Source: Bdellovibrionales bacterium RIFOXYD12_FULL_39_22
Lineage (GTDB): Bacteria; Bdellovibrionota; Bacteriovoracia; Bacteriovoracales; Bacteriovoracaceae
Direction: 5' to 3'
NCBI GenBank assembly: GCA_001770205.1
Contig: MEQL01000048.1
Span: 1 to 64,000 of the forward strand
DNA: 64,000 nt
Shown one piece after another: positions 31,411-58,779 of the stretch. Within the stretch, counting starts at the first letter, position 1, and each line of letters starts with the position of its first letter. The notes below the pieces were generated by a model. The model was given only the letters and a program-made list of their open reading frames with translations, was not told the DNA's origin and ran no database searches. The position numbers were made by a program, and so were the translations under genes.

Positions 31411-31412
31411 TT

Positions 31413-33052: not shown

Positions 33053-33063
33053 CAGGAAAACAA

Positions 33064-35331: not shown

Positions 35332-35335
35332 AATA

Positions 35336-37014: not shown

Positions 37015-37026
37015 GGTATTGATCAT

Positions 37027-37926: not shown

Positions 37927-37944
37927 GGTCACTCAGGAGGACAA

Positions 37945-38658: not shown

Positions 38659-38713
38659 TCATCGCAAAAGCACCTTTACGAATTTCTCATGGTGGTAGGT
38701 ACCCTTGTAATTG
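38655..38713 (+). pseudogene. 5' stub of a GHMP sugar kinase (HddA-like)
   Basis: ATGA-coupled MIIAKAPLRISHGG matches the HddA-type N-terminus (APLRISLGGGGTD), then similarity stops. Confidence 0.65.
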
Positions 38714-39463
<750 letters not shown>

Positions 39464-39472
39464 AAATGCCTC

Positions 39473-42767: not shown

Positions 42768-42786
42768 AGCTTACCTATATCAGATA

Positions 42787-43992
42787 TTATGATACCGAAT
42801 TAAACATTCCCCAAATATCAATTAAGATAAAATCCTTAGGAACTTTAACCTTCTTATAATCTTTATGAGGAGCACCGATAATAGCCGCATCTGCCTTCAA
42901 GGCCGTTGGTAAATCAACAAATTTAAAATCAAACTTCTCTTGGTGTTTCACATATGGATCGTGACAAATAACTTCCGCACCAAAAAATTCTAACATTTTT
43001 CTCAACTTAAATGCAAGAGAATCACGAACATCATCATTATTTGCCTTAAATGCCATTCCTAAAATAGCTATTTTTTTTCCTGTTATTGAACCACCCATGC
43101 GATTTTTCAATAAATCAATAGCAAAGGATGGCATCCCCTCATTAATTAACATAGCACTATGGCCTAAAAAAAAAGTATTCTGACTATATGCAGACAACTG
43201 CATGGTATCTTTAAACAAGCAAGGACCTGAAGCAAAACCTGCGCGAGCAAAGTCATTCATTCGGGGATAATCTTTTTTTACCGCCTCATAAATTTTAAAA
43301 AAATTCGCACCGGCCTTTTCAGAGATCTGAAAAAATTGATTACTGATGGCAAAATTAATATATCTCCAAGCATTACAAAATAATTTTGCAAGTTCAGCTT
43401 CTAACGGCAATAGCGTCACAGGTTTTTGTTTTGAAATTGTCCCAAAAATTTGCCGACAAACACTCAAACTTTTTTCATCAAATCCAGAGATAATCTGCGG
43501 AACTTCCACTAATTCTATCAACCCCTTCCCTTGAACAATGCGTTCAGGGCAGAAGGCCAAAGAAGCGTTGCATTTTTTTGTTTTCAGATAATCATTAATT
43601 AAAGACATCGTTCCGGGAAAAAGTGTTGAACGAAAAATCAAAACCTGATCTGCCTTTATGTATGGTAAGATCGCATCAATAACCTTAAAAACGTCAGCTG
43701 TTCTTGGATTCAAATGTTCATCAACAGGAGTTCCGATAGTCAGGATTACGATATCGCAATCACTCAAGACTTTAGGGGAGATTGTAGCCAAAAGATACTT
43801 TGACTTTATAACCTCTTTTAAACGTTCTTCGCCTTCTTCTTCCATGTGCGGAAGAATCGAGTCGTTAACAGTATTTACCGAGGCTTCATCTATATCATAC
43901 AAAAATGTCTTGAATTTGTTTTCAGCCAACACAATACCCAATGGTAATCCTATGTGTCCACACCCTCCAACAATAGCAATTTTATGCAGCAT
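42787..43992 (-). CDS. Nucleotide-sugar dehydrogenase (WecC/UDP-ManNAc dehydrogenase-like)
   Basis: GCGHIGLP, RST, FCPER, AELAKL, GPCLFKD, AFK..DDVRDS. Confidence 0.9.
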   Translation of the reverse strand: MLHKIAIVGGCGHIGLPLGIVLAENKFKTFLYDIDEASVNTVNDSILPHMEEEGEERLKEVIKSKYLLATISPKVLSDCDIVILTIGTPVDEHLNPRTADVFKVIDAILPYIKADQVLIFRSTLFPGTMSLINDYLKTKKCNASLAFCPERIVQGKGLIELVEVPQIISGFDEKSLSVCRQIFGTISKQKPVTLLPLEAELAKLFCNAWRYINFAISNQFFQISEKAGANFFKIYEAVKKDYPRMNDFARAGFASGPCLFKDTMQLSAYSQNTFFLGHSAMLINEGMPSFAIDLLKNRMGGSITGKKIAILGMAFKANNDDVRDSLAFKLRKMLEFFGAEVICHDPYVKHQEKFDFKFVDLPTALKADAAIIGAPHKDYKKVKVPKDFILIDIWGMFNSVS

Positions 43993-44216
43993 GTTTATTC
44001 TCCGTGAGAATTATAAAAGACAAAGATATTTTACTCAATTACACTCTAAGTTCACAATAATAATATTTAAAAACAAAAGCGCTGTCTCTAATTTTCTCTA
44101 GGATAATCAATAAGCAGCTAAGATTATCAAAAGATTATTGACGATGCAGGTTTTTGTTCGCTAAAATTATAACTGCAGTCCAATCTCCACCAACAGCAAT
44201 TAAACTAGAGAATACT

Positions 44217-45776
44217 ATGAAACTTACCATTAAACGCGATAACGTAATTGATATTGCGATATATCTGATATTTATTGTTGCATTATTTCACTCTTTATTT
44301 TCAGTTTTTGTAGGTATCAATAATACCATTGTTGATATGCATGGATTCCGCCAAAGCCAAACAGCTCTGTCTGCACTCTATATGCAAAAAGGTGGACCTT
44401 TTTTCAAATACGAGACACCTATTAATGGGTTCCCCTGGTCCATGCCACTGGAGTTTCCTCTTTATCAGTGGATAGTTGCGCAAATGACAATACTTTTTAA
44501 TGAAAACCTTGATACAATAGGAAGAGTTGTAAATATAATCAGCTTCTATTTGGCGTTAATTATCTGTTTTTTTTCTCTGAAACAATATCTCGGAAAAACC
44601 TCTTCTTGCCTTATTTTTATTTCCTTAATTCTTGCAAGCCCCCTATACCTTTTTTGGAGCAGAACATTTCTTATCGATGTGCATGTTTTTCTCTACGCTG
44701 CCCCCTACATCATTTTTGGTATTTTATATCTTAATACAAGAAAATTGAAACATTCCATCACAGGTTTATTTTTTGGTATTCTGGCCGGTCTGGTCAAAAT
44801 TACCACCTTTTATGTGCTCTCTCTTGTAATGTGTGCAATATTTTGTTTTGAGTATTATAAGAAAAACAAACTCAAAGTAGATTTGCTGAAAATCAAAGAG
44901 GAAGCCAATTTTATCTTCTGTTTTGCAATCTTGCCGCTAATTGCTCAGATCATTTGGATGAAATTTGCCGATGGTGTTAACAATGAAAACCCGCTGGCCT
45001 CTGGCGAGATGACCTCAGCTGGACTGTTTTACTGGAATTTTGGAACTCTCGAGCAAAAACTATCACTCCTTACTTGGGGGCAATTCTACCACCACACTAT
45101 TTTTAACACCCTTGGATCAACCTTTCTGGTCCTGCTATGGGCACTTCTTTTCATCTTGGCCAATAAAAAAACAAAACTTCTCAGTGCCACATCACTGCTA
45201 ATTGCGATACTGGTTTTTGCCACTTTTACAAATTTGCATTTTGTACACAACTACTACTCATACGCTGACGGATTTCTAATCCTATTTTCTCTCGGCTTGC
45301 CTATTTTGCAGTATATCGATGAACAAAACCTTAGTAAGCGAATGATTGGCGTTTCAATTTTATTATTGGTTGTTTTTTCTGAAATTGTTAGTCACAGAAA
45401 TAGTGCTCTATTTATGTTACAAGGCCATAATCGAACAAATATTCAAGAATTTGGGAATAAAATACAAGAATATGTGAAAGAGGATGAGGTTTTGTATATA
45501 TGGGGACATGAAAAAAATCCAGAAGTAACTTATTACTCACAACGACGATCTATTATGGAAAATACGACAGGAAGCATTTTAAATGACAAATTACAAAAGG
45601 CAATTGCCATGACCGATAAAGAAAAGATAACTGGACTGGTTGTATGTGCAGATCGATTTAAAAACAAGGAACTATTAAATGAAAGGCTTTTTACCTTCAA
45701 CCTTTCTTCGAATCCAATAATGCGTTATCAGACTCCTTACGAAAATATTAGAGATTGTTATTTTTTCGCACGATAG
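44217..45776 (+). CDS. ArnT/PMT-like GT-C membrane glycosyltransferase
   Basis: HGFRQSQTA, PLEFPLYQW, WSRTFLID, HNYY; many TMs; start moved to ATG 44217. Confidence 0.7.
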   Translation: MKLTIKRDNVIDIAIYLIFIVALFHSLFSVFVGINNTIVDMHGFRQSQTALSALYMQKGGPFFKYETPINGFPWSMPLEFPLYQWIVAQMTILFNENLDTIGRVVNIISFYLALIICFFSLKQYLGKTSSCLIFISLILASPLYLFWSRTFLIDVHVFLYAAPYIIFGILYLNTRKLKHSITGLFFGILAGLVKITTFYVLSLVMCAIFCFEYYKKNKLKVDLLKIKEEANFIFCFAILPLIAQIIWMKFADGVNNENPLASGEMTSAGLFYWNFGTLEQKLSLLTWGQFYHHTIFNTLGSTFLVLLWALLFILANKKTKLLSATSLLIAILVFATFTNLHFVHNYYSYADGFLILFSLGLPILQYIDEQNLSKRMIGVSILLLVVFSEIVSHRNSALFMLQGHNRTNIQEFGNKIQEYVKEDEVLYIWGHEKNPEVTYYSQRRSIMENTTGSILNDKLQKAIAMTDKEKITGLVVCADRFKNKELLNERLFTFNLSSNPIMRYQTPYENIRDCYFFAR

Positions 45777-45947
45777 ACTGGTAAATAGGTCGGATAATGG
45801 CAGTAAGCTTTCAAAAAAATGGATTAAATTCGAACTGGATTAAGTAATACTATCGTAATTACAAATAATACCGATATGGTTTCAAACTTGAATTCAGGTA
45901 ATTCGTATAGCTCGATAGCTCGATAGCATTATAAAAAGGATGTTCTT

Positions 45948-46925
45948 ATGCAGGATCTTTTAAGTTTCACCAAATTTTACATTAAATCTATGCGACTCCA
46001 CTTTGGTTTTATCACTGGTATCGCCGGATGGATTGGTATTGCCTACTACGAATATCTCTACCCAGAAACCCAAGTGGATTTGGCAAAAAAAATTTTCTTT
46101 TTAATAGCAATTTTTTTAGCATATGGAGTTAATCAAGTGGTCAACGATTATTTTGGCATGGAAGAAGATCGCATCAATGCCCCCAATCGCCCCATGGTTA
46201 CAGGAGAACTTTCACCAAAGATTGCGCTCTTTACCTCATTTTCTATTATGATCATACTGGGAATTGTTTCTTGGTTTATAGCACCACTTTCAGTTCTCCC
46301 TCTTATTGCCGGCGTTTTGCTCAATTTGCTTTATGAATATGCTAAATCCATTTCGTTGCTTGGTAATGTCATTTTCGGAATGTCAATGACTGTCTGCCCA
46401 ATCTACGGTTTCACTATTGCAGGCCCCGTCGGGCCACTCACTCTTTCCTGGCAAATAATAGGCCTTTTGGCCTTGATGGTCTTTATCACTGGTAGGATGA
46501 CTTACTTTACTTACTTCAAAGATTATGAGGGAGACAAGGCCACCGGAACAAAAACTTTTATTGTCGTTCACGGACTAGATACCGCTCGCAAGGTAGGACT
46601 AATTTTTTCGTTTATTCCAGGAGTCATCGTATTATCTCTATTGGCCTTGGGGGCAATTGATCTTGCCACATTTCAGGACCCGACAGCGGCACTATTTTGC
46701 TTTTCTTTGACAGTGCTAACCGTACTCTGGACAGGAATTTTGTACTACATCAAACCCTCTGGCGAAGCGACGTACTATAATCTAAGAATTAACATTCAGG
46801 CCTGCGTTTTAAGTCTGATCACCATTTTATCAATTATCGATGGTACGCTAGCACTCTACTTGTTATCTGCCAGCTATATTCTAATCGATATGATTTTTGG
46901 ATTGCATGGTGACGCTAAAGCATAA
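45948..46925 (+). CDS. UbiA-family prenyltransferase (DGGGP synthase/chlorophyll synthase-like motifs)
   Basis: NQVVNDYFGMEEDRINAPNRP and YFKDYEGD Asp-rich motifs; multiple TMs. Confidence 0.9.
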   Translation: MQDLLSFTKFYIKSMRLHFGFITGIAGWIGIAYYEYLYPETQVDLAKKIFFLIAIFLAYGVNQVVNDYFGMEEDRINAPNRPMVTGELSPKIALFTSFSIMIILGIVSWFIAPLSVLPLIAGVLLNLLYEYAKSISLLGNVIFGMSMTVCPIYGFTIAGPVGPLTLSWQIIGLLALMVFITGRMTYFTYFKDYEGDKATGTKTFIVVHGLDTARKVGLIFSFIPGVIVLSLLALGAIDLATFQDPTAALFCFSLTVLTVLWTGILYYIKPSGEATYYNLRINIQACVLSLITILSIIDGTLALYLLSASYILIDMIFGLHGDAKA

Positions 46926-46928
46926 ACA

Positions 46929-46952
46929 CATGGCCGTTCATAGGCGGCCATG
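46929..46952 (+). other. Intergenic stem-loop between UbiA and ACP genes
   Basis: CATGGCCGTT-CATA-GGCGGCCATG (10 bp with two G-U pairs), no U tract. Confidence 0.6.
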
Positions 46953-46980
46953 AATAAATACCAACGAAGGAAATAGTAAT

Positions 46981-47223
46981 ATGACAAAAAAGGAATTAGA
47001 AAAAGAACTGTTAAAATCTATTGAAAAACATACCCAGATCGTGATTGGAAATAATGACTACTCCACTTCACTGGCCAATTTAGGAATTGATTCCGTTTAT
47101 GCGGCAGAAGTAGCAAACGATATGGAAGATTTATTGGGGATTGTCATTGATGATCGCGATATTGCAAAATTCACCAGCATCACTGCTATTTTAGAATACT
47201 TTGATGGCCATATTAAAAACTAA
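46981..47223 (+). CDS. Acyl carrier protein
   Basis: Acidic 80 aa with LGIDSV phosphopantetheine site. Confidence 0.92.
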   Translation: MTKKELEKELLKSIEKHTQIVIGNNDYSTSLANLGIDSVYAAEVANDMEDLLGIVIDDRDIAKFTSITAILEYFDGHIKN

Positions 47224-47243
47224 GCAAATAGGTATCCAACTTT

Positions 47244-48479
47244 ATGAAAAAAAACTTCCACGATTTTTTTATTGAAAGCAAGCGTAATGATATTTTTGCC
47301 AATCTAGATGCTTTTTATGAATATCTTGAAGAGGCAAAATCAACTAAAGAGTATGCCTACCGTCGAACACTTGCCTCGGCCACCTCTTCTACCGTAGTCG
47401 TTGAAGGAGCAGGTGAAATGATCATGCTGGGTTCAAATAATTATTTAGATCTAGCGGCCAATACTAAAGTAGTAAATGCAGCGCAAGCTGCACTGGCCAA
47501 ATATGGAAATGGCAGTGGTAGTGTGGCGCTGCTGGGAGGAACCTTTGATTTACATCGAAAATTAGAAACTAAAATTGCTACCTTTTATTCTCGAGAATTG
47601 GCGGCCATTTTTCCCACGGGATTTAGCACTAATATTGGAACAATTAGTTCACTCATTTGCAGCAATGATCTTTTACTACTTGATACCTATTCGCATGCCA
47701 GTTTAATTGAAGGAACAAAGCTTACTCGCGCCACCGTAAAATTTTTCAAACACAACGACATGGAGCATCTAGAAAAACTTCTAATCAAACTTCGTTCTCA
47801 ATATGATGGTGTTTTAATTGTCACTGATGGCATTTTCAGTATGGATGGAGATATTTGTCCTCTTGATAAACTTATAGCGCTAAAGCAAAAATATAATGCC
47901 CGATTAATGATAGATGAAGCGCATGCCATTGGTATTGTCGGAGATCATGGACGTGGAACAGAAGAATATTTCCACTTAACAGGAGCAGTTGATATTATTA
48001 CGGGAACTCTTTCGAAAGCTCCTGGCGGTATCGGTGGTTATGTGGTGGGATCTAAAAAATTAGTAGAATATATTCGCCATTTTGCAAGCAGTTATATTTT
48101 CTCAACCAGTCTTCCTCCGGCCGTAGTTGGAGGATTAATTGAAGTTTTTAATATTTTAGAAAATGACCTCTCACATAAGGAAAAATTAGATTACAACAAA
48201 CAGCTTTTCACGGCCCGACTAAGAGAGCTTGGTTTTAATATTGGACAAACCATTTCGGCCATTGTTCCTATTATCATTGGCGATGAAGAAAAAACCAAAC
48301 TCATGGCCCGGGAATTGGCGGAAGAAAAAATTTTTTGTTCTGCGGTAGTCTTTCCGGCCGTAAGCAAAACACAGTCACGCTTACGAATAAGTTTAATGTG
48401 TTCTCATAGTGAAAAACAGCTTTTAAAAGTACTCTCCGCTCTAGAACTGATTGGTAAAAAATATGGAGTAATTGTCTAA
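47244..48479 (+). CDS. Alpha-oxoamine synthase (serine palmitoyltransferase/BioF/KBL family)
   Basis: LGSNNYL, SHAS, FSMDG, DEAH, GTLSKA, FSTSLPP, PAV...RLRIS. Confidence 0.92.
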   Translation: MKKNFHDFFIESKRNDIFANLDAFYEYLEEAKSTKEYAYRRTLASATSSTVVVEGAGEMIMLGSNNYLDLAANTKVVNAAQAALAKYGNGSGSVALLGGTFDLHRKLETKIATFYSRELAAIFPTGFSTNIGTISSLICSNDLLLLDTYSHASLIEGTKLTRATVKFFKHNDMEHLEKLLIKLRSQYDGVLIVTDGIFSMDGDICPLDKLIALKQKYNARLMIDEAHAIGIVGDHGRGTEEYFHLTGAVDIITGTLSKAPGGIGGYVVGSKKLVEYIRHFASSYIFSTSLPPAVVGGLIEVFNILENDLSHKEKLDYNKQLFTARLRELGFNIGQTISAIVPIIIGDEEKTKLMARELAEEKIFCSAVVFPAVSKTQSRLRISLMCSHSEKQLLKVLSALELIGKKYGVIV

Positions 48480-49507
48480 TGCGTGTTGTAGTAACCGGTG
48501 CCAATGGTTTTTTGGGCAGTCACATTGTTAGAAAACTTTCCAGATCAGGATATGAGGTTATCTCGCTTATCAGAAAAGGAAGTTCTCAAGAATATTTAAA
48601 AAACTATCAAACAACTATTTGGGAAATTGACTATACAGATGAAAAAAAACTATTAGAGATCTTTTCCACATCTGACATTTTAGTACACAACGCCGCACTG
48701 GCCAAAGATTGGGGTCCATATTCAGATTTTTATAAATCAAATGTTTTACTGGCCTCTCAAATTCATCAACTTGCCAATCAAGCAAAGATAAAAAAAATTA
48801 TTCACATCAGTTCTATTGCCGTAATGGGAGAAGAAGATTCTCTAACTCCCAAGAGCGAGGATGTTGAATATAATTCTAATCTACCCTATTTCCTCGAGAC
48901 AATTATACCCAGTGCCATGAATCACTATCGTAATACTAAGCGCGATGGCGAAAAAGCGGCCATCGCCTTGGCCTTAAAGTCTCAGGGAAATTTGACCATC
49001 TTACGTCCCGCCTGGATTTTTGGGCCAAGAGAATTTAATGCTGGGCCCTACGAATATTCAAAAACCATTCGTGATGGTATTTGGGCCCTGCCCGCCTCTT
49101 CCACTAATTTATTTCATGTGGTTTACGTGGAAGATGTAGCATCAGCAGTACATGCCGCCATTTTGGCCAATCGGGTGGGAATAAATATTTACACCATTGG
49201 AAATTCTTCCGTTCCGCTAATGAATAATTTTTATGGCCTTTTTTGTCTCCATCTTAAGAAGAAAATTCCATACAAATTACCCTATTGGGCCTTACTTTTT
49301 CCCTCTATTATTTTAGAACTTTTATATCTACTCCTTAAAAGTAAAACACCTCCTCTTTTAACTCGTGGCCGACTTTACATGATGTATGCCAACAATATTT
49401 ACCAAACTAATAAGGCAAAGAAAGAAATAAATTTTGAGGCCACCACCGATTTAAACTACGCCGTAAGAAAAACGGTTAAGTGGTGGAAGCTATACCGCTA
49501 TCTATAA
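48479..49507 (+). CDS. Extended SDR (3-beta-HSD-like reductase)
   Basis: GANGFLG, HNAA, ISS, YRNTK, RPAWIFGP. Confidence 0.9.
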   Translation: MRVVVTGANGFLGSHIVRKLSRSGYEVISLIRKGSSQEYLKNYQTTIWEIDYTDEKKLLEIFSTSDILVHNAALAKDWGPYSDFYKSNVLLASQIHQLANQAKIKKIIHISSIAVMGEEDSLTPKSEDVEYNSNLPYFLETIIPSAMNHYRNTKRDGEKAAIALALKSQGNLTILRPAWIFGPREFNAGPYEYSKTIRDGIWALPASSTNLFHVVYVEDVASAVHAAILANRVGINIYTIGNSSVPLMNNFYGLFCLHLKKKIPYKLPYWALLFPSIILELLYLLLKSKTPPLLTRGRLYMMYANNIYQTNKAKKEINFEATTDLNYAVRKTVKWWKLYRYL

Positions 49508-49542
49508 ATCTTAAACAGTATAAAATATAAGGAGAGGCCACT

Positions 49543-50859
49543 ATGTCTAATATCCCTAAAGAAGTTGTGCAAGAACCAGTTTTGGGTATAAAAAAACCAC
49601 TAACCTACCTCTATATTATCCTCTATGTTGGATGGAAATATACTTTAGAGCTTTTGACTTTCAAAATGAATCCTTGGCGTTACCTCATCTATCTGAGGCG
49701 GTTATTAATTGCAATAAAAGGATTTTATGAAAATAAAATTATGAAGATAAATGGCCAATATAAAATTCAACTTTATCTTCCGGCCTTCCCAAGTAAACCT
49801 TTTTTTCATGCTTTGAAAAAATTTGATCCAGACAATAAAAATCCTGGGCCAATTACGGTGGTATTTTCCATGACAAAAGCATGCCCTTACAAATGTCCTC
49901 ATTGCTATCAACGAAATGATCAAGGGCCAGAACTTGATATGGCATTATTAAAAAAGACGGCCAAAGAGATGCAAGAGCTTGGTGTTTCCATGTTTGACTT
50001 GGAGGGAGGAGAGCCGTTAGTTCGATTCAATCGATTACTAGATTTACTTTCCGTTTTTGATGAGCGAGCAGAAGTTTGGGTTAATACCACCGGGTACTCT
50101 CTGACTGAAGAGAAAGCGCAGCAGATGAAAGCGGCCAATGTTTATGGCGTTATGATCTCCTTGCACACTCCTCATCCCCAAGAATATGAATCCTTCACCC
50201 AAATGGAAGGCTCTTTTGATATTGCAACTAAAGCAATAAAAATGTTTCAAAAATATGGAATTGTCACGGCCATAAATTTTTGTCCCTCAGCTAAGCAAAT
50301 CAGAAATGGAGATGTGGAAAAATTATTCAAAATTACCAGTGAGTTAAAAGTATCGTTAGTGCAAGTTATCCATGCAAAACCTTCCGGTGCCTGGCTTTAT
50401 GAAAAAGATGAAATTTTTGATTCCGAAGAATTGATGCAAAAACTTAGAGAGTATCATCATCGATTTAACGAAGGCCCGGAAGCTTCTAACTATCCTTCAA
50501 TTATTTTCCAAGTAATGGAAGAAGATAAAGATCATTTTGGTTGTACTGCTGGGGGAATTGATCGCTTTTACTTTAACCATGAAGGAGAAGTTCAACCATG
50601 TGAGTTTATCAATATTTCTTTTGGCAATGTTAACGAGGAACCGTTTTTAGAAATTTTCCAAAGAATGAGATATCATTTTAAGCGTCCGGGAGTAAAGTGG
50701 ACTTGCTGTACAGAGGCCATGCGAATTGGAGAAGCTCTTAAGCAAAACAATGTTCCCAAGACGCCTCTTCCCTGGAAATATACTAAGGAGATCATTGAAA
50801 AATGGGATAAGGGAGAAGAAACTCCTCTTTATAAAAAAATGGGAATCTATAAAAAATGA
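49543..50859 (+). CDS. Radical SAM protein with twitch/SPASM-type extension
   Basis: CPYKCPHC, GGEP, GCTAG...GEVQPCEF; hydrophobic N-terminus. Confidence 0.92.
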   Translation: MSNIPKEVVQEPVLGIKKPLTYLYIILYVGWKYTLELLTFKMNPWRYLIYLRRLLIAIKGFYENKIMKINGQYKIQLYLPAFPSKPFFHALKKFDPDNKNPGPITVVFSMTKACPYKCPHCYQRNDQGPELDMALLKKTAKEMQELGVSMFDLEGGEPLVRFNRLLDLLSVFDERAEVWVNTTGYSLTEEKAQQMKAANVYGVMISLHTPHPQEYESFTQMEGSFDIATKAIKMFQKYGIVTAINFCPSAKQIRNGDVEKLFKITSELKVSLVQVIHAKPSGAWLYEKDEIFDSEELMQKLREYHHRFNEGPEASNYPSIIFQVMEEDKDHFGCTAGGIDRFYFNHEGEVQPCEFINISFGNVNEEPFLEIFQRMRYHFKRPGVKWTCCTEAMRIGEALKQNNVPKTPLPWKYTKEIIEKWDKGEETPLYKKMGIYKK

Positions 50860-51791
50860 ACAAATACTATCTTATTTTAAATCCTACCGCTCAAAGCGGG
50901 CGAGGAAAAAAATTGTGGCCAGAAATTTTCTCTTTGTTAGATAGGGAGAAACTAGCGTATGAAATAGGAACCTCTACTTACGCAGGACATTCCGTGGTAC
51001 TGGCCCAAGAAGCGGCACTCACTGGTAAATACCAAGGCATCGTGGCCATTGGCGGAGATGGCACTATCAATGAAGTATTAAACGGCCTACGCCAGGCCTG
51101 CCAGCTTTTAAATTCAACACAAACACTTCCGGCCTTTGGAATTATCTATACCGGCACTAGCCCCGATATCTGTAAATATCATAAAATACCTCTAAAAATG
51201 ACGGAAGCCGTTGCAAATCTAAAGCGCCATCGCGTCGTGATGATAGATGTGGGAGAAGTCATTTATAAAAAAAATAGCACCGACCAGACCTCTTGGTTTT
51301 TATGCAGTGTAAATTTGGGTATTGGTGCTAGCGTAGCTGACGGTAGCAACTCTGGATTGCGCAGATACTTTGGTGATCTTTTGGGAACATTTTTTTCCAT
51401 AATCCTTTCTGTTTTAAAATATAAGCAAGCAAATTTAAAGGTACGATTTGATGGACAAGAAATGCTTTTTGAAAAAACACTTAATATGGCCATTGGAAAA
51501 AATCCACTAATTGCCTCAGGAGTAAAAGTGGATGTAGAGGTTTTGCCGGATGACGGAAAAATGTATCTCTTTTCCATTAATAACATGGGCCTGCTCTCTC
51601 TGCTTTTTAATGTAAAAAAAATATATGATGGTTCTCTACATCGTCTTCCTTCAAACAAACTAATATTTATAAATTCTTTTGCCTGTGACTACTCTTCTGC
51701 GGCCCCCGATGTGGAATTTGATGGAGATCCTCAAGGAAAACTTCCCTGTAGCATTAAACTTCTTCCTAAAAAAATAGGATTGATCAAATGA
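50856..51791 (+). CDS. DAGK/sphingosine-kinase-family lipid kinase
   Basis: ILNPTAQSG, GGDGTINEVLNG, IDVG, EFDGD. Confidence 0.9.
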   Translation: MNKYYLILNPTAQSGRGKKLWPEIFSLLDREKLAYEIGTSTYAGHSVVLAQEAALTGKYQGIVAIGGDGTINEVLNGLRQACQLLNSTQTLPAFGIIYTGTSPDICKYHKIPLKMTEAVANLKRHRVVMIDVGEVIYKKNSTDQTSWFLCSVNLGIGASVADGSNSGLRRYFGDLLGTFFSIILSVLKYKQANLKVRFDGQEMLFEKTLNMAIGKNPLIASGVKVDVEVLPDDGKMYLFSINNMGLLSLLFNVKKIYDGSLHRLPSNKLIFINSFACDYSSAAPDVEFDGDPQGKLPCSIKLLPKKIGLIK

Positions 51792-52825
51792 GTAAAAAAG
51801 AAAAAGAGTTAGTAAAATTCATCTCGCAAACTTTTAAGCGACATCCTGCACAACTAAATGACGCCTATGAGGCCGACAGCGAAATAATTAATCTAGGGGG
51901 AATAAATTATGCCATCAACATTGATTCCTACTCAGCGGAAGAAGATTATTTTTCTGATCTTGTTCCGGCCAACTTAGGTTTTAATCTGGCCATTGCCACC
52001 ATAAGTGACCTCCTGGCCGTCGGAGCCGATCCTCAGTTTTATCTTCATTCCATGGGATTGGATCGTGCAAAAGATGAAAAGTATCAGCAAAGTTTTTTGC
52101 AAGGTATCGCCGAGGCATTACAAAAAACTAACACCTATCTTTTAGGAGGAGATACCTCTACTGGAAATTGCTGGGCATATACTGCTACGGCCTTTGGACA
52201 ATGTCTTACTACTCCCGTTTTACGAAAAGGGGCCAGACCGGGTGATTTCTTGTATTCCACTGGTAAATTAGGAACGGGTAATCGTCAAGCACTCGCCTTA
52301 CTTTTATTGCGCGATAAAAAACTACCACTTGATAATAGAAGCATTGCCCTGGCCTCTCCTCGTTTTATTTCTCGTTATAAAGAATCTACTGTTATAAAAA
52401 AATATGCGAGCTTTATGATTGATAGCAGCGATGGTGCAATTAACTCTCTATACAATTTAAGCGAAGTAAATCCGTTGGTAGAATTTGAATTGAAATTCAA
52501 AGAAGAGTTAATTGAACAAGAAGCACAAGAGATAAGTAAATTGGCCCAAATGCCACTGGAAATTTTTCTCTTCTCCACTCTCGGTGAATATGAACTTTTC
52601 TTTGGTATTCCCCAAAATAAAAACAGTGATTTCTTGGCCAATTGTAAAAAGGAAAACATCACCATTTTTCCCCTTGGACAAATAAATAATGGGTCCGGAA
52701 TACGCTTCACTAAAAATAATCTCTCCTTTCAACTTCCCTCCTCTATGCCCGACCCACGAGATTTGACGATGGAAAAATATGTAAGTGGCCTTTTGGCCTT
52801 TATCAAAGAGAATATCTATGGATAA
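51788..52825 (+). CDS. ThiL-like kinase (PurM/AIR synthase fold), divergent
   Basis: SDLLAVGADP, LLGGDT, RKGARPGD, IDSSDG, GEYEL. Confidence 0.85.
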   Translation: MSKKEKELVKFISQTFKRHPAQLNDAYEADSEIINLGGINYAINIDSYSAEEDYFSDLVPANLGFNLAIATISDLLAVGADPQFYLHSMGLDRAKDEKYQQSFLQGIAEALQKTNTYLLGGDTSTGNCWAYTATAFGQCLTTPVLRKGARPGDFLYSTGKLGTGNRQALALLLLRDKKLPLDNRSIALASPRFISRYKESTVIKKYASFMIDSSDGAINSLYNLSEVNPLVEFELKFKEELIEQEAQEISKLAQMPLEIFLFSTLGEYELFFGIPQNKNSDFLANCKKENITIFPLGQINNGSGIRFTKNNLSFQLPSSMPDPRDLTMEKYVSGLLAFIKENIYG

Positions 52826-54020
52826 CAGCAAAATATTTTTCCCGCTTCGCTTGGGAAAAACTACCCTTCAAAACAGAGTAATCCGCGCGGCAACTTACGA
52901 GGGCGGTGGAGATCATAATGGGATTCCCACCAAACATCTACATAACATGTATGAAGATCTGGCCCGCAATGATGTGGCACTAATTATCACTGGCTTTAAC
53001 TATGTCTCTCTAGAAGGCCGCGCCTATCAACCTCGTCAATGTGGAATCGATCATGAAAATAAAATTGCTCCTTGGCAAGAAATTACAGATCTTGTTCATC
53101 AGCATAGAGCAAAAATTTGTATGCAAATTTCCCATTGCGGGAGACAAACGAGAAGTGAAATTACCCATTCTCCCATTTACGCTCCTTCCGCAATAACTTG
53201 CACATATTTTCGTCAACGGCCTAAAACTTTAAGTGAAGAAAAAATATTATCTATAATTGCTGAATATGTTGATGCCGCCAAACGTGCGCAACAAGCAGGT
53301 TTTGATGGTGTTCAGGTACATTGCGCTCATGGCTATCTTATTCATCAGTTTTTTTCCTCCCACACTAATCGCCGAACAGATTCATGGGGTGGAAGTTATG
53401 AAAATCGCTTTCGTTTTGCCAAAGAAATTCTCACAAAAATTAGAGAGGTTTGTGGCCCCAATTTTTTAATCCTAACTAAAATCAGTGCTGGGGATGATCG
53501 AGGCCTTACAGTTGACATGGCCCGCATTTTTTGTGAACTAATCGACCAACTTAAAGTAGTAGATGGAATTGAAATATCTTATGGAACGATGGAATTTGCT
53601 ATGAACATATTTCGTGGCAAACTGCCTATTAATTTAGTTTTCAAGTACAATCCTCTTTTTGCCAGGTATCCTCGTCTAGTACAAAAACTGTGGCTTAAAT
53701 TTATTTTTCCCTGGTATAAGAAAAAATTCTATCCATTTAGTGAAAATTATAATTTAGAAAACGCACTGGCAATTGCCAAAAAAGTTAATACTCCCATCAT
53801 TGTTACGGGAGGAATTCGTAAAAAGTCTTCTATTTCTAATATTCTTAACACCAATATCGCAGCAGTATCTATTTGTCGTCCCTTTTTGGCCGAACCAGAT
53901 TTAATGAAAAAGATTGCGGCCAACGAGGAGTATCATTTTCGCTGTACCAACTGCAATATCTGCACCGTAATGTGTGATAGCGATAATCCCGGACATTGCT
54001 ACACTATAAAATCAAAATAA
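52818..54020 (+). CDS. NADH:flavin oxidoreductase (old yellow enzyme family) with C-terminal Cys cluster
   Basis: NRVIRAATYE, QISHCGR, HCAHGYLIHQF, NRRTDSWGG, CTNCNIC...C; start moved to ATG 52818. Confidence 0.92.
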   Translation: MDNSKIFFPLRLGKTTLQNRVIRAATYEGGGDHNGIPTKHLHNMYEDLARNDVALIITGFNYVSLEGRAYQPRQCGIDHENKIAPWQEITDLVHQHRAKICMQISHCGRQTRSEITHSPIYAPSAITCTYFRQRPKTLSEEKILSIIAEYVDAAKRAQQAGFDGVQVHCAHGYLIHQFFSSHTNRRTDSWGGSYENRFRFAKEILTKIREVCGPNFLILTKISAGDDRGLTVDMARIFCELIDQLKVVDGIEISYGTMEFAMNIFRGKLPINLVFKYNPLFARYPRLVQKLWLKFIFPWYKKKFYPFSENYNLENALAIAKKVNTPIIVTGGIRKKSSISNILNTNIAAVSICRPFLAEPDLMKKIAANEEYHFRCTNCNICTVMCDSDNPGHCYTIKSK

Positions 54021-54035
54021 TAGGAAATTATTTGT

Positions 54036-56270
54036 ATGAAAACAAAAACTAACTTTGATCTATCAATATTTTTAGAAAAATATGCCAATCTTTGTATTGG
54101 ATTTATCGTCATTGTCAGTTTGCTTTTTTTGCTCCCGCTATGGCAAACGCGAGTGGATAACAGTCTAAGTGTTCTCTATGAATCGGGAAATGATATTGAT
54201 CGGGCCAACCAAGAAATAAAGAAAGTTTTTGGTAACATAGATGAGTTAGTCGTGCTGGCCTATCACTCTCCAGATCTATTTCAAGTAAGTGAGTTGCGCT
54301 TTTTGCAGCAAATACAAGAAAATCTGGAAATAATACCAGGAATTAAATCCTGTATTAGTCTAGTCAACGTTCAAAGTTTTTGGAATGAAGTGGTCGGCGG
54401 AGAAATTATTACTAATACTGCTCCCTTTTTAAAGGAGCTGCCAACTAATAGTGAAGAATTAAGTGCGCTCAAAAAAAAGGCCCTGGCCAATCCACTTTAT
54501 TTAAAAAACTTTATAAGTAAGGATGGCAGAGTTGCAGGATTTAATATTATTTTTGATGATGGGATAACTGATCTACAAAAAGAAGAAACAGTAAAAAAAA
54601 TAATTTCTACCCATAAAAGTTTCAATCGGCCCTCTCAATTTTACTTGGCCGGCATGCATGTTTTTATGGAATCCACCGGCCGCTATATCGAAAATGATAT
54701 CATCCTCTACACTTCTTTGCTGGTACTAATTATGTTTGTACTAATGCTAATAATCTATAGAAATATCTGGGCCAGTTTGATGATCTTAAGCACTGTGGCC
54801 ATTTCCAATATTTTAACTATTGGCACTGTTACTCTTTTAGGAATGAAAATTAGTATCGCTACTACCGCTACTCCGGCCATCATAACTGCTTTTTCTATTG
54901 CCTACACTATTCATATCTTTTCAAGCAGCAACCAGGGAATGAATGAAGTTTTGCTTTCAAATTTTTTGGCCATTCTAACCACCCTCTTGGGTTTTGCCTC
55001 TATGCTCTTTAGTCCTATGCCAACTGTAAATCAATTGGGATTATACCTAGTAATGGGATCCATCTACTGTCAATTGACAATACTATTATTTGCGACTCCT
55101 ATGAAGTTGAGATATTTTAGTCATCTACAGCGCAATGAATTGGCCATTGCCTTCACACAGATGTGTCACAAGTTTGTTAAAACAAAGCGCCTATTAATCT
55201 ATCTCTATGCCCTTTTAATGTTTATTATTAGCTTTTTTGTACTCAATATGAAGTTGGATACCAACTACTATAAATATTTCAAAGAGCGCTCTGAAATTGT
55301 TAAAAGCGTTGATTTTATCAATCAACACCTCTCCGGACAATATCCCATTGTAGTAAAAATCACCAATCCCAGCGGTGTTAAGAACGAAAAAACACTGCGA
55401 CTTATTGAAAAATATAGCAACTTTATCAGTACCTCTCCCGACGTTGATAAAGTTATAAACTATCTCTCTTTGCTAAACGAAGGCGAGAAGGCCTTTAGTG
55501 ATGAAATTAAATCCAACTGGTATTTAGACCTGCGGGCCCTAGAAGAGGTACATATGTTGCTGGAAGGAGAAGACAAGGAGATGTTGCGTTATTATATTAA
55601 TTCCTCCGAAGATTCCACTTTAATTTTTGTGCGCACAAAAAGTATTAGTTCACTGGACTTTAAATCTATTGTGGCACAAACGCGCCAATTTTTTGCTCAA
55701 GAGCAGCTAGATAATTTAGAAATATCAATTGGAGGAACCTACCTTAATACTGTGGAGTCTGCCGATAAAATGTCGGCCTCGCAATTGACCTCTTCTTTTT
55801 ATGCCATCTCTGCGATCTTGCTAATTATCTTTATTTTTGCCAGAAAATTTTCACTGATGCTATTTGCTGGGGTGGTTAATATTCTGCCTATTTTTGCCAT
55901 CTATGGCATCATGGGCATTATGCAAGAGCCGCTAAATATGGGAACGGCCATTATCGCCTCTATAGCTTTTGGAATGGGTGTTGACGACACTATCCATTTT
56001 ATCATCCGCTATCGCTATGCTTTCAAAAAAATAGGAAGCGTTGAGCAGGCCATTTCACTAGTCTTTTTTGAAGGGGTTCCTTCTATGACCTACACCTCCA
56101 TTGTTATCGGTATTGGCTTTCTTTCGCTGGCACTCTCTTCTTTCACCCCTATTTATCAATTAGGCGTTTATACCTCGCTTACTATGCTTTTGTGCTACAC
56201 CTTCGATGTTTTTGTACTGCCACGTCTTCTTTATGATTTTGAAAAAGATGAGACGGAGAATGTTCATTAA
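54036..56270 (+). CDS. MMPL/RND-family lipid transporter
   Basis: Two repeats of TM, periplasmic domain and five TMs; GMGVDDTIHF. Confidence 0.9.
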   Translation: MKTKTNFDLSIFLEKYANLCIGFIVIVSLLFLLPLWQTRVDNSLSVLYESGNDIDRANQEIKKVFGNIDELVVLAYHSPDLFQVSELRFLQQIQENLEIIPGIKSCISLVNVQSFWNEVVGGEIITNTAPFLKELPTNSEELSALKKKALANPLYLKNFISKDGRVAGFNIIFDDGITDLQKEETVKKIISTHKSFNRPSQFYLAGMHVFMESTGRYIENDIILYTSLLVLIMFVLMLIIYRNIWASLMILSTVAISNILTIGTVTLLGMKISIATTATPAIITAFSIAYTIHIFSSSNQGMNEVLLSNFLAILTTLLGFASMLFSPMPTVNQLGLYLVMGSIYCQLTILLFATPMKLRYFSHLQRNELAIAFTQMCHKFVKTKRLLIYLYALLMFIISFFVLNMKLDTNYYKYFKERSEIVKSVDFINQHLSGQYPIVVKITNPSGVKNEKTLRLIEKYSNFISTSPDVDKVINYLSLLNEGEKAFSDEIKSNWYLDLRALEEVHMLLEGEDKEMLRYYINSSEDSTLIFVRTKSISSLDFKSIVAQTRQFFAQEQLDNLEISIGGTYLNTVESADKMSASQLTSSFYAISAILLIIFIFARKFSLMLFAGVVNILPIFAIYGIMGIMQEPLNMGTAIIASIAFGMGVDDTIHFIIRYRYAFKKIGSVEQAISLVFFEGVPSMTYTSIVIGIGFLSLALSSFTPIYQLGVYTSLTMLLCYTFDVFVLPRLLYDFEKDETENVH

Positions 56271-56399
56271 CTGCCTGGCATTCTCATTCAACGGTCGATA
56301 AGGATGAGGTTGAATTTTTAGTTGAATTGTTGGCGGCCTTACAAATAAAAAGTATGTCCGCATGGCAAAAGTAAGTCCTGAGACGGCCAAAAGATATTT

Positions 56400-56626
56400 T
56401 GCTGCTCCTGCAAAAAGTTTTTTTCATACCATAAAAGTTGAGCATATTTTAGGCAAAAAAATTTTAACAAGGGCCAAAGCAAAAGCTAGCATCTTTGAAT
56501 GGACTGAAGTAATTTATAATCGTTCAATAATTCACTCGACGCTTGGTTACATTTCACCGGTTGAATTTGAACGTATGTATTTTGAAAAAGTTTCTTTACC
56601 CGAGTCCGTTTTTGAGCGGAAGATCA
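56400..56626 (+). pseudogene. IS3-family transposase C-terminal remnant with right inverted repeat
   Basis: SFFHTIKVE...IFEW...YNR..IHSTLGYISPVEFE; end GAGTCCGTTTTTGAGCGGAAGATCA (reverse complement begins TGATCTT, IS3-like). Confidence 0.8.
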
Positions 56627-56692
56627 ATCTGCGCTTGTGGATTTCATGGAGGCCCATCATAAGATAAAGGCCACCAAGAGGAGTAGTTCAAA

Positions 56693-57454
56693 ATGAAGTA
56701 TGATAATAAAATAAATGAAATCGACAAACTCAATGGAAAAATTGATCAATTTAGACCAATTAACAAAGTATTGTTAAAGCAAATCAAGGAATATTTCCGA
56801 ATAAGCCTAACTTACTCCAGTAACGCCATTGAAGGTAACACCCTTACTGAAACAGAAACGAAGGTTGTCCTTGAAGATGGACTTACTATCGCAGGAAGGC
56901 CCTTAAAAGATCATTATGAGGCATCAGGACACAGCGAAGCCTATGACATGGTTTTTGACCTTGCAAAAAAGAAAACAATTACTGAAAAAGACATTTTAAA
57001 CATTCATCGACTTTTCTATTATAGAATTGACAACGAAAATGCTGGCCATTATCGCGAAGTTCCAGTTGTTATCACTGGAACTGAATATGTGCCACCTGCC
57101 CCATCAAAAATCCCTACTCTTATGAAAAAATTTGTGGCAAAAATCCCCTCACTCAAAAAGAAACATCATCCCATTGAGGCCGCGGCCTTGATTCACAAAG
57201 AGCTTGTTGGCATTCACCCATTTGTTGATGGCAATGGCAGAACAGCACGATTATTAATGAACCTTTCGCTTTTTCAGGCCGGTTATACCATAACAATAAT
57301 CCCGCCAATTCTTAGGGCTGACTATATTGCTTTAATTAAACAATCGCAGACGGGCAAAAAGGATGACTCTGGATTTATTAATTTTATCAGCGCAATGGCA
57401 TATGAATCGACTAAGGATTATTACCGCTTATTAAAGCAGCTATGCCAAACATAA
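56693..57454 (+). CDS. Fic-domain AMP transferase, class II (autoinhibited)
   Basis: HPFVDGNGRTAR catalytic motif; N-terminal inhibitory SNAIEGN. Confidence 0.95.
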   Translation: MKYDNKINEIDKLNGKIDQFRPINKVLLKQIKEYFRISLTYSSNAIEGNTLTETETKVVLEDGLTIAGRPLKDHYEASGHSEAYDMVFDLAKKKTITEKDILNIHRLFYYRIDNENAGHYREVPVVITGTEYVPPAPSKIPTLMKKFVAKIPSLKKKHHPIEAAALIHKELVGIHPFVDGNGRTARLLMNLSLFQAGYTITIIPPILRADYIALIKQSQTGKKDDSGFINFISAMAYESTKDYYRLLKQLCQT

Positions 57455-57566
57455 TGTTTACGTTCACTCAATTAAGGGTAATTAAGGTAGTTATTGAGAG
57501 GTTCACATAAAAAAGAACAGATACAAAAAACTTGGAGATTTAGCAGAAAAAAGATGCATAAAAAAT

Positions 57567-57643
57567 TGGCACACCGGACAGGGGTCGAACCTGTGACCTA
57601 CCGCTTAGAAAGCGGTTGCTCTATCCAGCTGAGCTACCGGTGC
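57567..57643 (-). tRNA. tRNA-Arg(TCT)
   Basis: GCACCGG acceptor, AGCTCAGCTGGATAGAGC D-arm, ACCGC-TTTCTAA-GCGGT, ACAGG-TTCGACC-CCTGT, encoded CCA. Confidence 0.97.
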
Positions 57644-57680
57644 GCATATGATTTTATTAATGCTGGGGATCGCTCTGCGA

Positions 57681-57709
57681 AATTTAAGCAAAATAATACT
57701 TCTTGTCAA
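57681..57709 (-). promoter_or_regulatory. Sigma70 promoter of tRNA-Arg
   Basis: TTGACA-N17-TAAATT. Confidence 0.6.
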
Positions 57710-57789
57710 GAAATTGATAATTTGTCAGATTGATAAAAACTACTGGGCCTTCTACCCATAAAACAACCTTTCGTAATAGGAGATAATTT

Positions 57790-58779
57790 ATTCGCGCCCG
57801 TATATACCATTCCTCTACTCGCGAATTTACCTGCAAAATTATCGACAGTGGTCTCACCGTACGAGCATGTGCGCTCGGCAATCTTCTTAAAGATGGCACC
57901 GTCGTTGTGGGTGACTTTGTGGATCTAGGAATTATTTCTGAGACAGGTGAATATCAAATACGATCAGTGGAAAAGCGGCAAAACGAAATCTTTAGGGTAA
58001 TTGTTCGCGAAGGGAAAAAAAAGGTTACTGCAGCTAATTGTGATTGCCTGGTAATTATAACATCTGCGGCCGATCCTGATTACAAACGCGGAATTATAGA
58101 TAGATTTTTGGTGCGGGCCTATCAGTGGGGAATTCGACCGTTAGTTGTATTCAACAAAATGGATCTCTACAATGAAGATCTTTTTTTTATCCATTTCGAG
58201 GCCGAAAGACTTGCTCAACTTGGTATCGAATCTTTTGAAATATGTGCCAACAGCTTCGATCCCAGTTCTCCCAATAAATCAAATTATCAACAACGCTTTT
58301 TGAAAAATGGCATTGCGCAATTGCGTGATGAATTACACAACAAAACGGCCATTTTTGTAGGACAATCTGGTGTCGGTAAAAGCAAGCTCATTTCGCTACT
58401 TGCAGGCAATAGCATTTTGCTCAAAACCAACGAAGTGGGAAAAAACAAGAAAGGGACTCATACCACAACCTGGTCAGAGATAATTGATTGTGAATTTTTT
58501 CAATTGATTGACTCTCCCGGTGTTCGCTCTTTTGCACTCGATGATATTTCCAAGGATGAACTACTTTCTCTTTTTCCAGACATTGAAAAAATCGCCCTAA
58601 AATGTTCCTTTTCAAACTGCACCCACAGCGAAAACGCTAAGGGGTGTGCTTTTGCGCCGCTATGGGAAAGTGACGAATTGGCCGACCTCTATCTCTTATC
58701 CCGACTAGAATCGTACGTTAAAATACTAGAAGAACTTGCTAAAGTGGATGCCTGGAATAAAAAAAATTACTCGTCATAA
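57790..58779 (+). CDS. rsgA: Small ribosomal subunit biogenesis GTPase, apparent ATT start
   Basis: VVGD OB motif, NKMD, GQSGVGKS, HTTT, DSPG, CSFSNCTH...C; frame open 39 codons upstream of the GTG 57907 to ATT 57790, with AGGAGA 6 nt before. Confidence 0.9.
   Translation: MRARIYHSSTREFTCKIIDSGLTVRACALGNLLKDGTVVVGDFVDLGIISETGEYQIRSVEKRQNEIFRVIVREGKKKVTAANCDCLVIITSAADPDYKRGIIDRFLVRAYQWGIRPLVVFNKMDLYNEDLFFIHFEAERLAQLGIESFEICANSFDPSSPNKSNYQQRFLKNGIAQLRDELHNKTAIFVGQSGVGKSKLISLLAGNSILLKTNEVGKNKKGTHTTTWSEIIDCEFFQLIDSPGVRSFALDDISKDELLSLFPDIEKIALKCSFSNCTHSENAKGCAFAPLWESDELADLYLLSRLESYVKILEELAKVDAWNKKNYSS

Follow-up and report, generated by a model that had tools for sequence, protein, structure and literature searches.

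We examined a 64,000-nt stretch of DNA, hereafter the window, from Bdellovibrionales bacterium RIFOXYD12_FULL_39_22 (contig MEQL01000048.1, positions 1 to 64,000; its genome is labelled G000 in our set). In the list of open reading frames (ORFs), nine genes are packed tightly on the forward strand between 45948 and 56270, running from a UbiA-superfamily membrane transferase to an MMPL/RND exporter, and within this cassette lies the pair of kinase genes with which we are mainly concerned. The first (50856-51791) encodes a 311-aa soluble lipid kinase with DAGK_cat and YegS_C domains (PF00781, 82.1 bits; PF19279, 37.4 bits), here called DAGK, and the second (51788-52825) a 345-aa ThiL-like kinase of the PurM fold, which carries the Pfam AIRS N-terminal domain and matches the NCBIfam thiL model TIGR01379. 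Direct reading of the sequence shows an ATGA start/stop overlap between the two (51788-51791) and another between DAGK and the radical S-adenosylmethionine (SAM) gene before it (50856-50859). An earlier, sequence-only reading of this DNA gave the coordinates and the ATGA coupling of the two kinases correctly. Such an overlap is by itself an ordinary operon trait; what surpasses chance is the conserved adjacency of the DAGK and ThiL-like genes. We conclude that the kinase pair probably activates a lipid alcohol rather than making vitamin B1.

The cassette opens with the UbiA-superfamily transferase (45948-46925; PF01040, 93.7 bits) and a dedicated acyl carrier protein (ACP; 46981-47223; PF00550, 34.1 bits). 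These are followed by a pyridoxal phosphate-dependent alpha-oxoamine synthase (AONS; 47244-48479; PF00155, 189.6 bits) of the SPT/KBL/BioF-like type, whose NCBIfam scores (KBL 382, BioF 379, and SPT 369 bits) each fall under the model's own cut-off; the SPT models together give 266 to 369 bits against cut-offs of 500 to 670. A TAATG overlap (48477-48481) joins the AONS gene to an extended short-chain dehydrogenase/reductase (SDR; 48479-49507; PF01370, 101.8 bits; PF07993, 71.6 bits) resembling HpnA, OleD, 3beta-HSD, and thioester reductases (TIGR03466, 125 bits, under cut-off). Next comes the radical SAM/SPASM enzyme (49543-50859; PF04055, 64.1 bits; PF13186, 27.9 bits), for which the best NCBIfam rows, GeoRSP, AhbD, and NirJ2, are all far under cut-off. 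Downstream of the kinases lie an old yellow enzyme (OYE)/FadH-like flavin mononucleotide oxidoreductase (52818-54020; PF00724, 221.3 bits) and, as an accessory member, an MMPL/HAE3-type RND lipid exporter (54036-56270; PF03176, 85.4 bits; TIGR00921, 137.9 bits, under cut-off). The OYE ORF is listed from a GTG at 52785, although the ATG at 52818 is the likelier start; if the gene begins there, it overlaps the ThiL-like gene by 8 nt (52818-52825). None of the proteins of this gene run reached a curated NCBIfam equivalog cut-off, and a scan for promoters and terminators over 43800-57800 gave counts not above those of shuffled sequence.

The cassette recurs widely. Nine loci were found in genomes with a profile of the close ThiL-like clade, their neighbors being identified by tblastn. 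In all eight of these that have upstream DNA, the gene directly before the ThiL-like one is DAGK, and UbiA, radical SAM, OYE, AONS, and SDR genes are found around the pair. The records belong to Bacteriovoracaceae, Candidatus Ozemobacteraceae, Planctomycetota, Candidatus Auribacterota, Candidatus Riflebacteria (locus L015, which carries only a truncated ThiL-like match), and uncultured metagenome-assembled genomes. A metagenome scan yielded 79 further loci, and among the 50 with at least 1,100 bp of upstream sequence DAGK is directly upstream in 38. The 12 exceptions comprise 2 permuted operons in which DAGK comes at the far end, 2 with DAGK two genes downstream, 3 permuted loci whose contig ends at the expected DAGK site, and 5 that are short or unresolved. 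In the 21 well-covered metagenome loci (at least 5 kb on both sides), UbiA and AONS are present in all 21, SDR and radical SAM in 20 each, DAGK in 19, and OYE in 18; all seven genes occur together in 17, the incomplete loci being the near-identical L056 and L057 (without OYE), L062 (where the contig ends), and L111.

The commonest gene order is UbiA, OYE, ACP, AONS, DAGK, ThiL-like, ketosynthase, SDR, radical SAM. A FabF-like ketosynthase occurs in 31 loci and an ACP-like ORF of ca. 85 aa in 25 metagenome loci; the ketosynthase is missing from the window's cassette, and the best match in the same genome is 30% identical and located elsewhere. The MMPL/RND exporter was seen in the window and in a Bacteriovoracaceae relative (L007), where the copy is 49% identical and has a LolA-like gene after it. 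Neither a prenyl-diphosphate synthase nor a CDP-activating enzyme is a recurrent member of the cassette, nor is an acyltransferase of the N-acyltransferase/ceramide-synthase type, although no search with a bCerS profile was made for the latter. On one metagenome contig (L094, 1631-7153), two opposed ThiL-like copies flank an SDR and a radical SAM gene, an arrangement due either to inverted duplication or to chimeric assembly. Three further AONS/SPT-like paralogues, 33 to 36% identical to the cassette AONS, lie on contigs 35, 47, and 10 of G000, and among these is probably the SPT that serves housekeeping sphingolipid synthesis in the lineage.

A second architecture is seen in L107 and L111, where ThiL-like, AONS, DAGK, and UbiA genes are consecutive and are followed by a reductase of the classical adh_short type and another radical SAM protein, both non-homologous to their counterparts in the first architecture. 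Because the same functions are thus kept by non-homologous members, AONS, a reductase, the two kinases, UbiA, and a radical SAM enzyme would appear to form one pathway, and what is conserved in both architectures is, to judge from family assignments, the functional set. Proteins labelled Bacteroidota, Bacteroidales, or Saprospiraceae are 65 to 76% identical to the ThiL-like proteins of the full cassettes L062 and L053, which indicates that Bacteroidota carry the cassette too; it therefore spans at least five phyla (Bdellovibrionota, Bacteroidota, Planctomycetota, Auribacterota, and Ozemobacteraceae). That the ThiL-like protein works with the DAGK kinase and UbiA, as the sequence-only reading supposed, is strongly supported by comparative genomics, since the three travel together in two architectures and across these phyla. 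A full-text literature search found no description of the cassette; the lipocone paper (PMC12419801) and the Ubi-297/ebo paper (PMC9235831) deal with other UbiA neighborhoods.

The ThiL-like protein has the fold of ThiL. Its AlphaFold2 model (pLDDT 96.9) is a two-domain PurM fold, and in a Foldseek search the top ten matches are all ThiL chains (E 4e-26 to 1e-24), the best being Aquifex ThiL (3c9t; TM 0.73/0.81), ahead of SelD, HypE, and PurM. The best solved matches in a sequence search are likewise all ThiL, and an ESM Atlas look-up returned only generic "thiamine monophosphate kinase family" or "hypothetical" clusters. Since the superfamily runs several chemistries on one fold with shared metal ligands, and SelD, HypE, and PurM structures do match the model with TM values of about 0.7, the protein might instead be no phosphate kinase at all and use ATP in the manner of PurM, PurL, or HypE, activating the AONS product at a carbonyl or amide oxygen so that it can be cyclised, aminated, or dehydrated, with DAGK acting independently. 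The alpha-amino-ketone made by an AONS would be a plausible substrate for such activation. We nonetheless consider this improbable: profile scores (thiL 140, selD 48, hypE 28, and purM 24 bits) and the solved sequence matches all point to ThiL, and tight pairing with an alcohol kinase suits an enzyme that consumes a monophosphate.

Phylogeny sets the protein apart from canonical ThiL. A quick maximum-likelihood tree was built from 100 rows (the window protein itself, 8 copies from cassettes at genome loci, 82 homologues from databases, 7 canonical ThiLs, the G000 paralogue L002, and L023, a more distant AIRS-family row that serves as outgroup together with L022), excluding P0001, which is only part of the window protein, and P0084 to P0087, which are weak or short matches. 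All nine copies of known cassette context fall in a clade of 79 rows (SH-aLRT 99), while the canonical ThiLs form a separate group (support 95). A third group (support 91) holds 12 database proteins and L002. These proteins (P0043, P0046 to P0048, P0053, P0055, P0064, P0067, P0074, P0075, P0079, and P0080) include several, one from Flavobacterium maritimum among them, whose label reads thiamine-phosphate kinase. Not one of the 12 has the GDD loop, the C-terminal G[YW]xHF motif, or the histidine of VHF, and an E-[SA]-D-A-E N-terminal motif is common to this group and the cassette clade; the ThiL annotation of the group may be wrong, or ThiL of Bacteroidota may be atypical. L002 itself (on G000 contig 10; locus positions 1408-2415, reverse strand), which joins the group on a long branch, is a second non-canonical ThiL-like protein of 335 aa (TIGR01379, 117 bits). 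Its gene is flanked by two P-loop genes, thymidylate-kinase-like by sequence, and a HAD-type gene, with an aminotransferase-like ORF adjoining, and one of the AONS paralogues (contig 10, 35140-36264) lies ca. 12 kb away; the region may be a further kinase-containing lipid or metabolite cluster.

Within the cassette clade, catalytic and substrate-side positions have fared differently. The window protein carries S73-D74, G120-G121-D122-T123, and D212-S213-S214-D215-G216, the ATP/Mg motifs (SD, GGDT, and DSSDG) recognized in the sequence-only reading. The ThiL traits which that reading found missing are indeed absent: AEEDYF (50-55) occupies the site of the canonical E-x-[VIT]-H-F (EGVHF), E28-A29-D30 occupies that of the GDD loop, which in ThiL sits between beta1 and beta2 and makes a ribose-phosphate contact, and motif reading finds neither G[IVLM]GDD (GIGDD) nor the C-terminal G[YWF]xHF (GY/WDHF) in the protein. 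D30, D46, D74, G120-G121-D122, R146, D212, S214, D215, and G216 are kept in 76 to 79 of the 79 clade rows. In Pseudomonas ThiL (PaThiL), as described in the structural report (PMC13254938), the metal ligands are Asp30, Asp47, Asp75, and Asp211, Asp214 bridges a metal to the phosphate of thiamine monophosphate (TMP), and His54 hydrogen-bonds TMP; the conserved columns of the cassette clade correspond to these metal ligands and to conserved loops. In the column of His54, which is His in all seven canonical ThiLs, the window protein has D53 and the clade has Asp in 76 and Glu in 2 of 79 rows; a profile alignment to Aquifex ThiL agrees on D53 at this position. The preceding residue, E52, is Glu in 78 of 79 clade rows, and position 66 is Asn in 78 of 79, where canonical ThiL has Lys or Arg. 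A further TMP contact from the same report, PaThiL Tyr189, was not used, as its region is gapped in the alignment and varies even from one solved ThiL to another.

The motif counts agree with this picture: GDD[ACST] is present in a single one of the 79 clade rows and in 5 of the 7 canonical ThiLs (one of which is N-terminally truncated), [ED]x[VIT]HF in 1 of 79 against 6 of 7, and the C-terminal G[YWF]xHF, a motif defined from the sequence-only reading and our own set of canonical ThiLs, in 0 of 79 against 5 of 7. W129, N165, R324, and Y331 are clade specific, the model shows an additional C-terminal helix (328-344), and positions 321, 322, and 331 of the window protein are unoccupied in all seven canonical ThiLs of the alignment. 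Because the catalytic residues and the ThiL fold are retained while TMP-side positions are changed, the clade appears to have kept its phosphotransfer machinery and remade its substrate side. Where ThiL has V-H, the conserved acidic residues E52-D53 would, by inference, accommodate an ammonium group beside the phosphate.

We also asked whether the gene could serve thiamine synthesis. Its score against TIGR01379 is 140.4 bits, below the cut-off of 184.15, and all 47 homologues tested are likewise below (two of them without a match at E<=1e-25), although that cut-off is passed in only 9 of 14 control genomes. It could be argued that the gene is simply the organism's thiL and its lipid-gene neighborhood incidental: it is the best TIGR01379 match of a genome in which no copy exceeds the cut-off, the presence of transketolase means that thiamine diphosphate (TPP) is needed, and, given the controls, a subthreshold score alone is not decisive. 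The other AIRS-fold genes of G000 are hypE (which by sequence adjoins a hypD-like gene), selD, genes of purM/purL type, and the contig 10 paralogue. We regard the explanation by a plain thiL as very improbable. The genome, which is 94.6% complete, gave no match to thiE (PF02581), thiC (PF01964), thiamine pyrophosphokinase (TIGR01378), or the TPP riboswitch (RF00059), and a riboswitch scan of the window found none. In the same GTDB family, the Bacteriovoracaceae, 37 of 41 genomes have no thiL above cut-off (4 do), and the window-type gene occurs only where the cassette does, in 4 of the 41: G000, G014 (44% identical), G059 (a short contig with DAGK and the ThiL-like gene), and G062, which has the entire cassette plus a canonical thiL of 285 bits. 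Three of nine cassette genomes of other lineages also hold a canonical thiL (222 to 265 bits, with cassette copies at 90 to 108 bits), so that the two genes coexist in 4 of 12 cassette genomes (G042, G044, G045, and G062; 222 to 285 against 90 to 145 bits).

A separate canonical thiL, for which the sequence-only reading would have us look, is thus absent above cut-off from G000 itself but present in those four genomes. That reading's view of the gene as no ordinary thiL is upheld by the separate clade, the lost motifs, and the four genomes holding both genes, and we consider it strongly supported by comparative genomics that the protein is not a housekeeping ThiL. As to the transketolase of G000, the genome has no recognized route to TPP; uptake from prey would be a guess at the source of TPP in these predatory-lineage bacteria.

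DAGK, the partner kinase, has as its closest solved chain DgkB (2qv7; E 5e-11), and its best NCBIfam row is TIGR00147 (YegS/Rv2252/BmrU), at 84.3 bits against a cut-off of 118.65; all other rows are also below their cut-offs. The GGDGT loop lies at residues 66 to 70, and G66-G67-D68-G69-T70 does not vary among 40 cassette orthologues. When DAGK and the ThiL-like protein were modelled as a complex, the prediction scored 0.45 against 0.21 for the best of three controls; the runs agree in 96% or more of their contacts, and partner pLDDT is 89 or higher. Of 157 solved complexes, 116 reach the mark used, as do 2 of 215 mismatches, and those reaching it with scores of 0.60 or less number only 18 of the 157 solved complexes and include both mismatches. 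We take the prediction as weak support, and we do not claim that the two proteins bind.

How might the cassette work as a whole? DAGK_cat enzymes phosphorylate lipid hydroxyls, ThiL phosphorylates a phosphomonoester, and UbiA-fold enzymes act on diphosphate-bearing donors. From gene content, conservation, family assignments, kept catalytic residues, and altered substrate-side residues, we infer a substrate, an order of steps, and a donor role as follows. The AONS would condense an acyl-ACP with an amino acid, aided by the dedicated ACP and, in most relatives, the ketosynthase, and the SDR would turn the resulting amino-ketone into a long-chain amino-alcohol. DAGK would phosphorylate a hydroxyl of this alcohol (R-OH to R-OP); the ThiL-like enzyme would move the gamma-phosphate of ATP onto R-OP, as ThiL does on thiamine phosphate, to give R-OPP; and the atypical UbiA would use R-OPP, most likely as its leaving-group-bearing substrate. 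The radical SAM enzyme and OYE would tailor the product, and in Bacteriovoracaceae the MMPL/RND pump, with a LolA-like partner in L007, would export it. The cassette itself seems equipped for just one alcohol, the long-chain amino-alcohol that results from reduction of the AONS product, and the scheme R-OH to R-OP to R-OPP for UbiA, the most economical one, fits, by analogy, the chemistry of the three families and the remodelled UbiA motif described below. That the two kinases convert this amino-alcohol to a diphosphate, used by UbiA as donor, is the reading we prefer, though we would place it somewhat short of an even bet.

More tentative still is the assignment of a lipid class. Possibly, the cassette makes a hitherto undescribed class of membrane lipid in bacteria, for which a sphingoid-type, non-isoprenoid long-chain base is activated by the two kinases as its diphosphate and serves as alkyl donor for the remodelled UbiA; the ThiL-like enzyme would then be the first known lipid-phosphate kinase of the ThiL/PurM fold, and the chemistry would parallel archaeal ether-lipid assembly from an amino-alcohol backbone instead. 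A variant entertained in the sequence-only reading is prenol salvage, in which free polyprenols or phytol-like alcohols are reactivated to prenyl diphosphates for UbiA. This would follow the same logic as a known two-kinase supply to UbiA enzymes, whose normal substrates are prenyl diphosphates. It is disfavored because the kinases are always tied to AONS and the reductase, the builders of a non-isoprenoid alcohol, and because no prenyl-diphosphate synthase recurs; moreover, the E52-D53 pair and the remodelled UbiA motif would be unexpected for plain prenyl substrates. We therefore rate prenol salvage as quite improbable.

Much turns on UbiA. Its closest solved chain is a digeranylgeranylglyceryl phosphate (DGGGP) synthase (6m31; E 2e-11), and its best NCBIfam rows are PRK12883 and PRK12882. 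The first motif reads N66-D67-x-x-G70-x-x-E73-D74 instead of NDxxDxxxD, and in 40 cassette orthologues Gly70 is invariant (40/40), E73 is kept in 39 (Ala in one), and D74 is conserved; the second motif, D192-x-x-x-D196, is intact in all 40. A precedent is Rv3806c, a UbiA-fold decaprenyl-phosphate phosphoribosyltransferase that uses the non-prenyl diphosphate donor phosphoribosyl pyrophosphate (PRPP); in this enzyme, Asn73 and Asp77 of the first motif hold Mg on the pyrophosphate of PRPP (PMC10994848). With Gly at the position of Asp77, the cassette UbiA would have a diphosphate site that is remodelled in a conserved way.

The affinity to DGGGP synthases (PRK12883, PRK12882, and 6m31 being the nearest characterized relatives) also fits an explanation in which the kinases act in series on the amino-alcohol and the phosphorylated lipid is the acceptor or a head group, not the donor. 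The long-chain-base phosphate would be a structural analogue of geranylgeranylglyceryl phosphate; a DGGGP-synthase-like UbiA would attach a host prenyl chain, taken from ordinary prenyl diphosphate, to its amine or secondary hydroxyl; OYE and the radical SAM enzyme would saturate or modify that chain; and the diphosphate made by the ThiL-like enzyme would serve as head group or as an activated species from which head groups are exchanged. No N-acyltransferase recurs, which means that a second chain must come from elsewhere, and an ene-reductase-type OYE is found in 18 of 21 loci, both in keeping with a prenyl chain. However, this scheme has no clear need for a diphosphate and hence none for the always-present ThiL-like enzyme, neither a prenyl-diphosphate synthase nor a CDP-activating enzyme recurs in the cassette, and an ordinary prenyl donor leaves the invariant change in the UbiA donor motif unexplained. 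It strikes us as a serious possibility, if an unlikely one.

Several points weigh against the donor role that we prefer. In the DGGGP synthase reaction the acceptor is a lipid phosphate and the alkylating agent an ordinary prenyl diphosphate, and the likeness of the cassette UbiA to this enzyme is equally consistent with the phosphorylated lipid being an acceptor. Alkyl diphosphates that are primary and non-allylic make poor electrophiles for ionisation of the UbiA type, and loss of the middle Asp of the UbiA motif could mean weaker rather than altered diphosphate binding. Fusions of DAGK or UbiA to the ThiL-like protein were not found among proteins of 605 to 2000 aa, which is weak evidence. 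Finally, because a TPP-dependent transketolase is present without a recognized TPP route, the ThiL-like enzyme may have a side activity on thiamine phosphate.

The surroundings of the cassette hint at its history. Right after it, translations read as an integrase/transposase-like fragment (56362-56667) and a Fic-like protein (56693-57454), and a tRNA gene lies at 57570-57643 on the reverse strand. Given the sporadic occurrence in 4 of 41 family genomes and the adjoining transposase fragment, Fic gene, and tRNA, the region looks like an acquired island, which suggests horizontal acquisition. Immediately upstream (29667-43992), translations read as a large sugar-nucleotide/glycosyltransferase locus of O-antigen or capsule type, in which a glycosyltransferase-like ORF (38714-39463, reverse strand) terminates in 12 leucines, a simple-sequence tract at its 3' end that is possibly slippage-prone. 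Between this locus and the cassette lies a gene (44154-45776) for a membrane protein of 540 aa that matches nothing in Pfam or NCBIfam; its ESM Atlas neighbors are ArnT/PMT-type GT-C glycosyltransferases (feature score 0.99, TM up to 0.90), which we treat as a lead only. The protein may be part of the upstream polysaccharide locus or may decorate the cassette lipid.

If the kinase pair does act as we prefer to think, lipid phosphate would be a new substrate class for the ThiL/PurM fold, UbiA enzymes would gain a new type of donor, and an undescribed lipid would exist in many uncultured Bacteroidota, Planctomycetota, Auribacterota, and Ozemobacteraceae and in predatory Bacteriovoracaceae. There is also a practical side: source databases label several members of the cassette clade as thiamine(-mono)phosphate kinases, and such labels can cause metagenome-assembled genomes to be wrongly called self-sufficient for thiamine. 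With its seven to ten genes, the cassette is compact, and its heterologous expression is feasible.

Among known systems, the ThiL-like protein is closest to ThiL itself (EC 2.7.4.16; solved from Aquifex, 3C9R-U; Acinetobacter, 5CC8/5DD7; and Pseudomonas, 8YKS/8YKU), with which it shares the PurM fold, four metal-binding Asp residues, the GGD loop, a conserved Arg, and the SDG loop. The reaction type is, on these residues, probably the same, namely, transfer of the ATP gamma-phosphate onto a phosphomonoester. It differs from ThiL in scoring under the TIGR01379 cut-off and forming a separate clade; in the change of G-D to E-[SA] in the GDD loop, of the TMP-binding His to an Asp that follows a Glu, and of K/R66 to Asn; and in lacking G[YW]xHF while carrying an extra C-terminal segment with R324, Y331, and a helix. 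Moreover, its gene is never found beside thiamine genes and always in a lipid cassette. DAGK shares with DgkB, YegS, BmrU, and Rv2252 the DAGK_cat and YegS_C domains and the GGDGT loop, and differs in falling below the cut-offs of the named subfamilies and in having a fixed ThiL-like partner. Sphingosine and ceramide kinases share the DAGK catalytic domain.

In plants, phytol kinase VTE5 and phytyl-phosphate kinase VTE6 feed the UbiA enzymes VTE2 and chlorophyll synthase. The proposed conversion of an alcohol via its monophosphate to a diphosphate by two dedicated kinases, for a UbiA enzyme, is alike in both; however, the VTE5 and VTE6 kinase families are, to our knowledge, unrelated to the DAGK-fold and PurM-fold enzymes of the cassette, whose alcohol is probably self-made via AONS and non-isoprenoid. 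The core sphingolipid pathway of Caulobacter uses Spt, a dedicated ACP, a ceramide reductase, and a ceramide synthase. Like it, the cassette has neighboring genes for an AONS/SPT-like enzyme, an ACP of its own, and a reductase of the NAD-dependent epimerase type; unlike it, the cassette adds UbiA, the radical SAM enzyme, the two kinases, and usually a ketosynthase and OYE, and has no recurring ceramide-synthase-type acyltransferase. For the cassette UbiA, DGGGP synthase (6M31) is the closest solved relative, and Rv3806c shows that the UbiA fold can take a non-prenyl diphosphate donor (PMC10994848); the Mg-bridging Asp77 of that enzyme, the middle Asp of NDxxDxxxD, is replaced in the cassette by an invariant Gly, with E73-D74 after it. 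The chemistry is thus familiar at the level of families, and what would be new, on the reading that we prefer, is the pairing of a DAGK-fold with a PurM-fold kinase on a self-made lipid.

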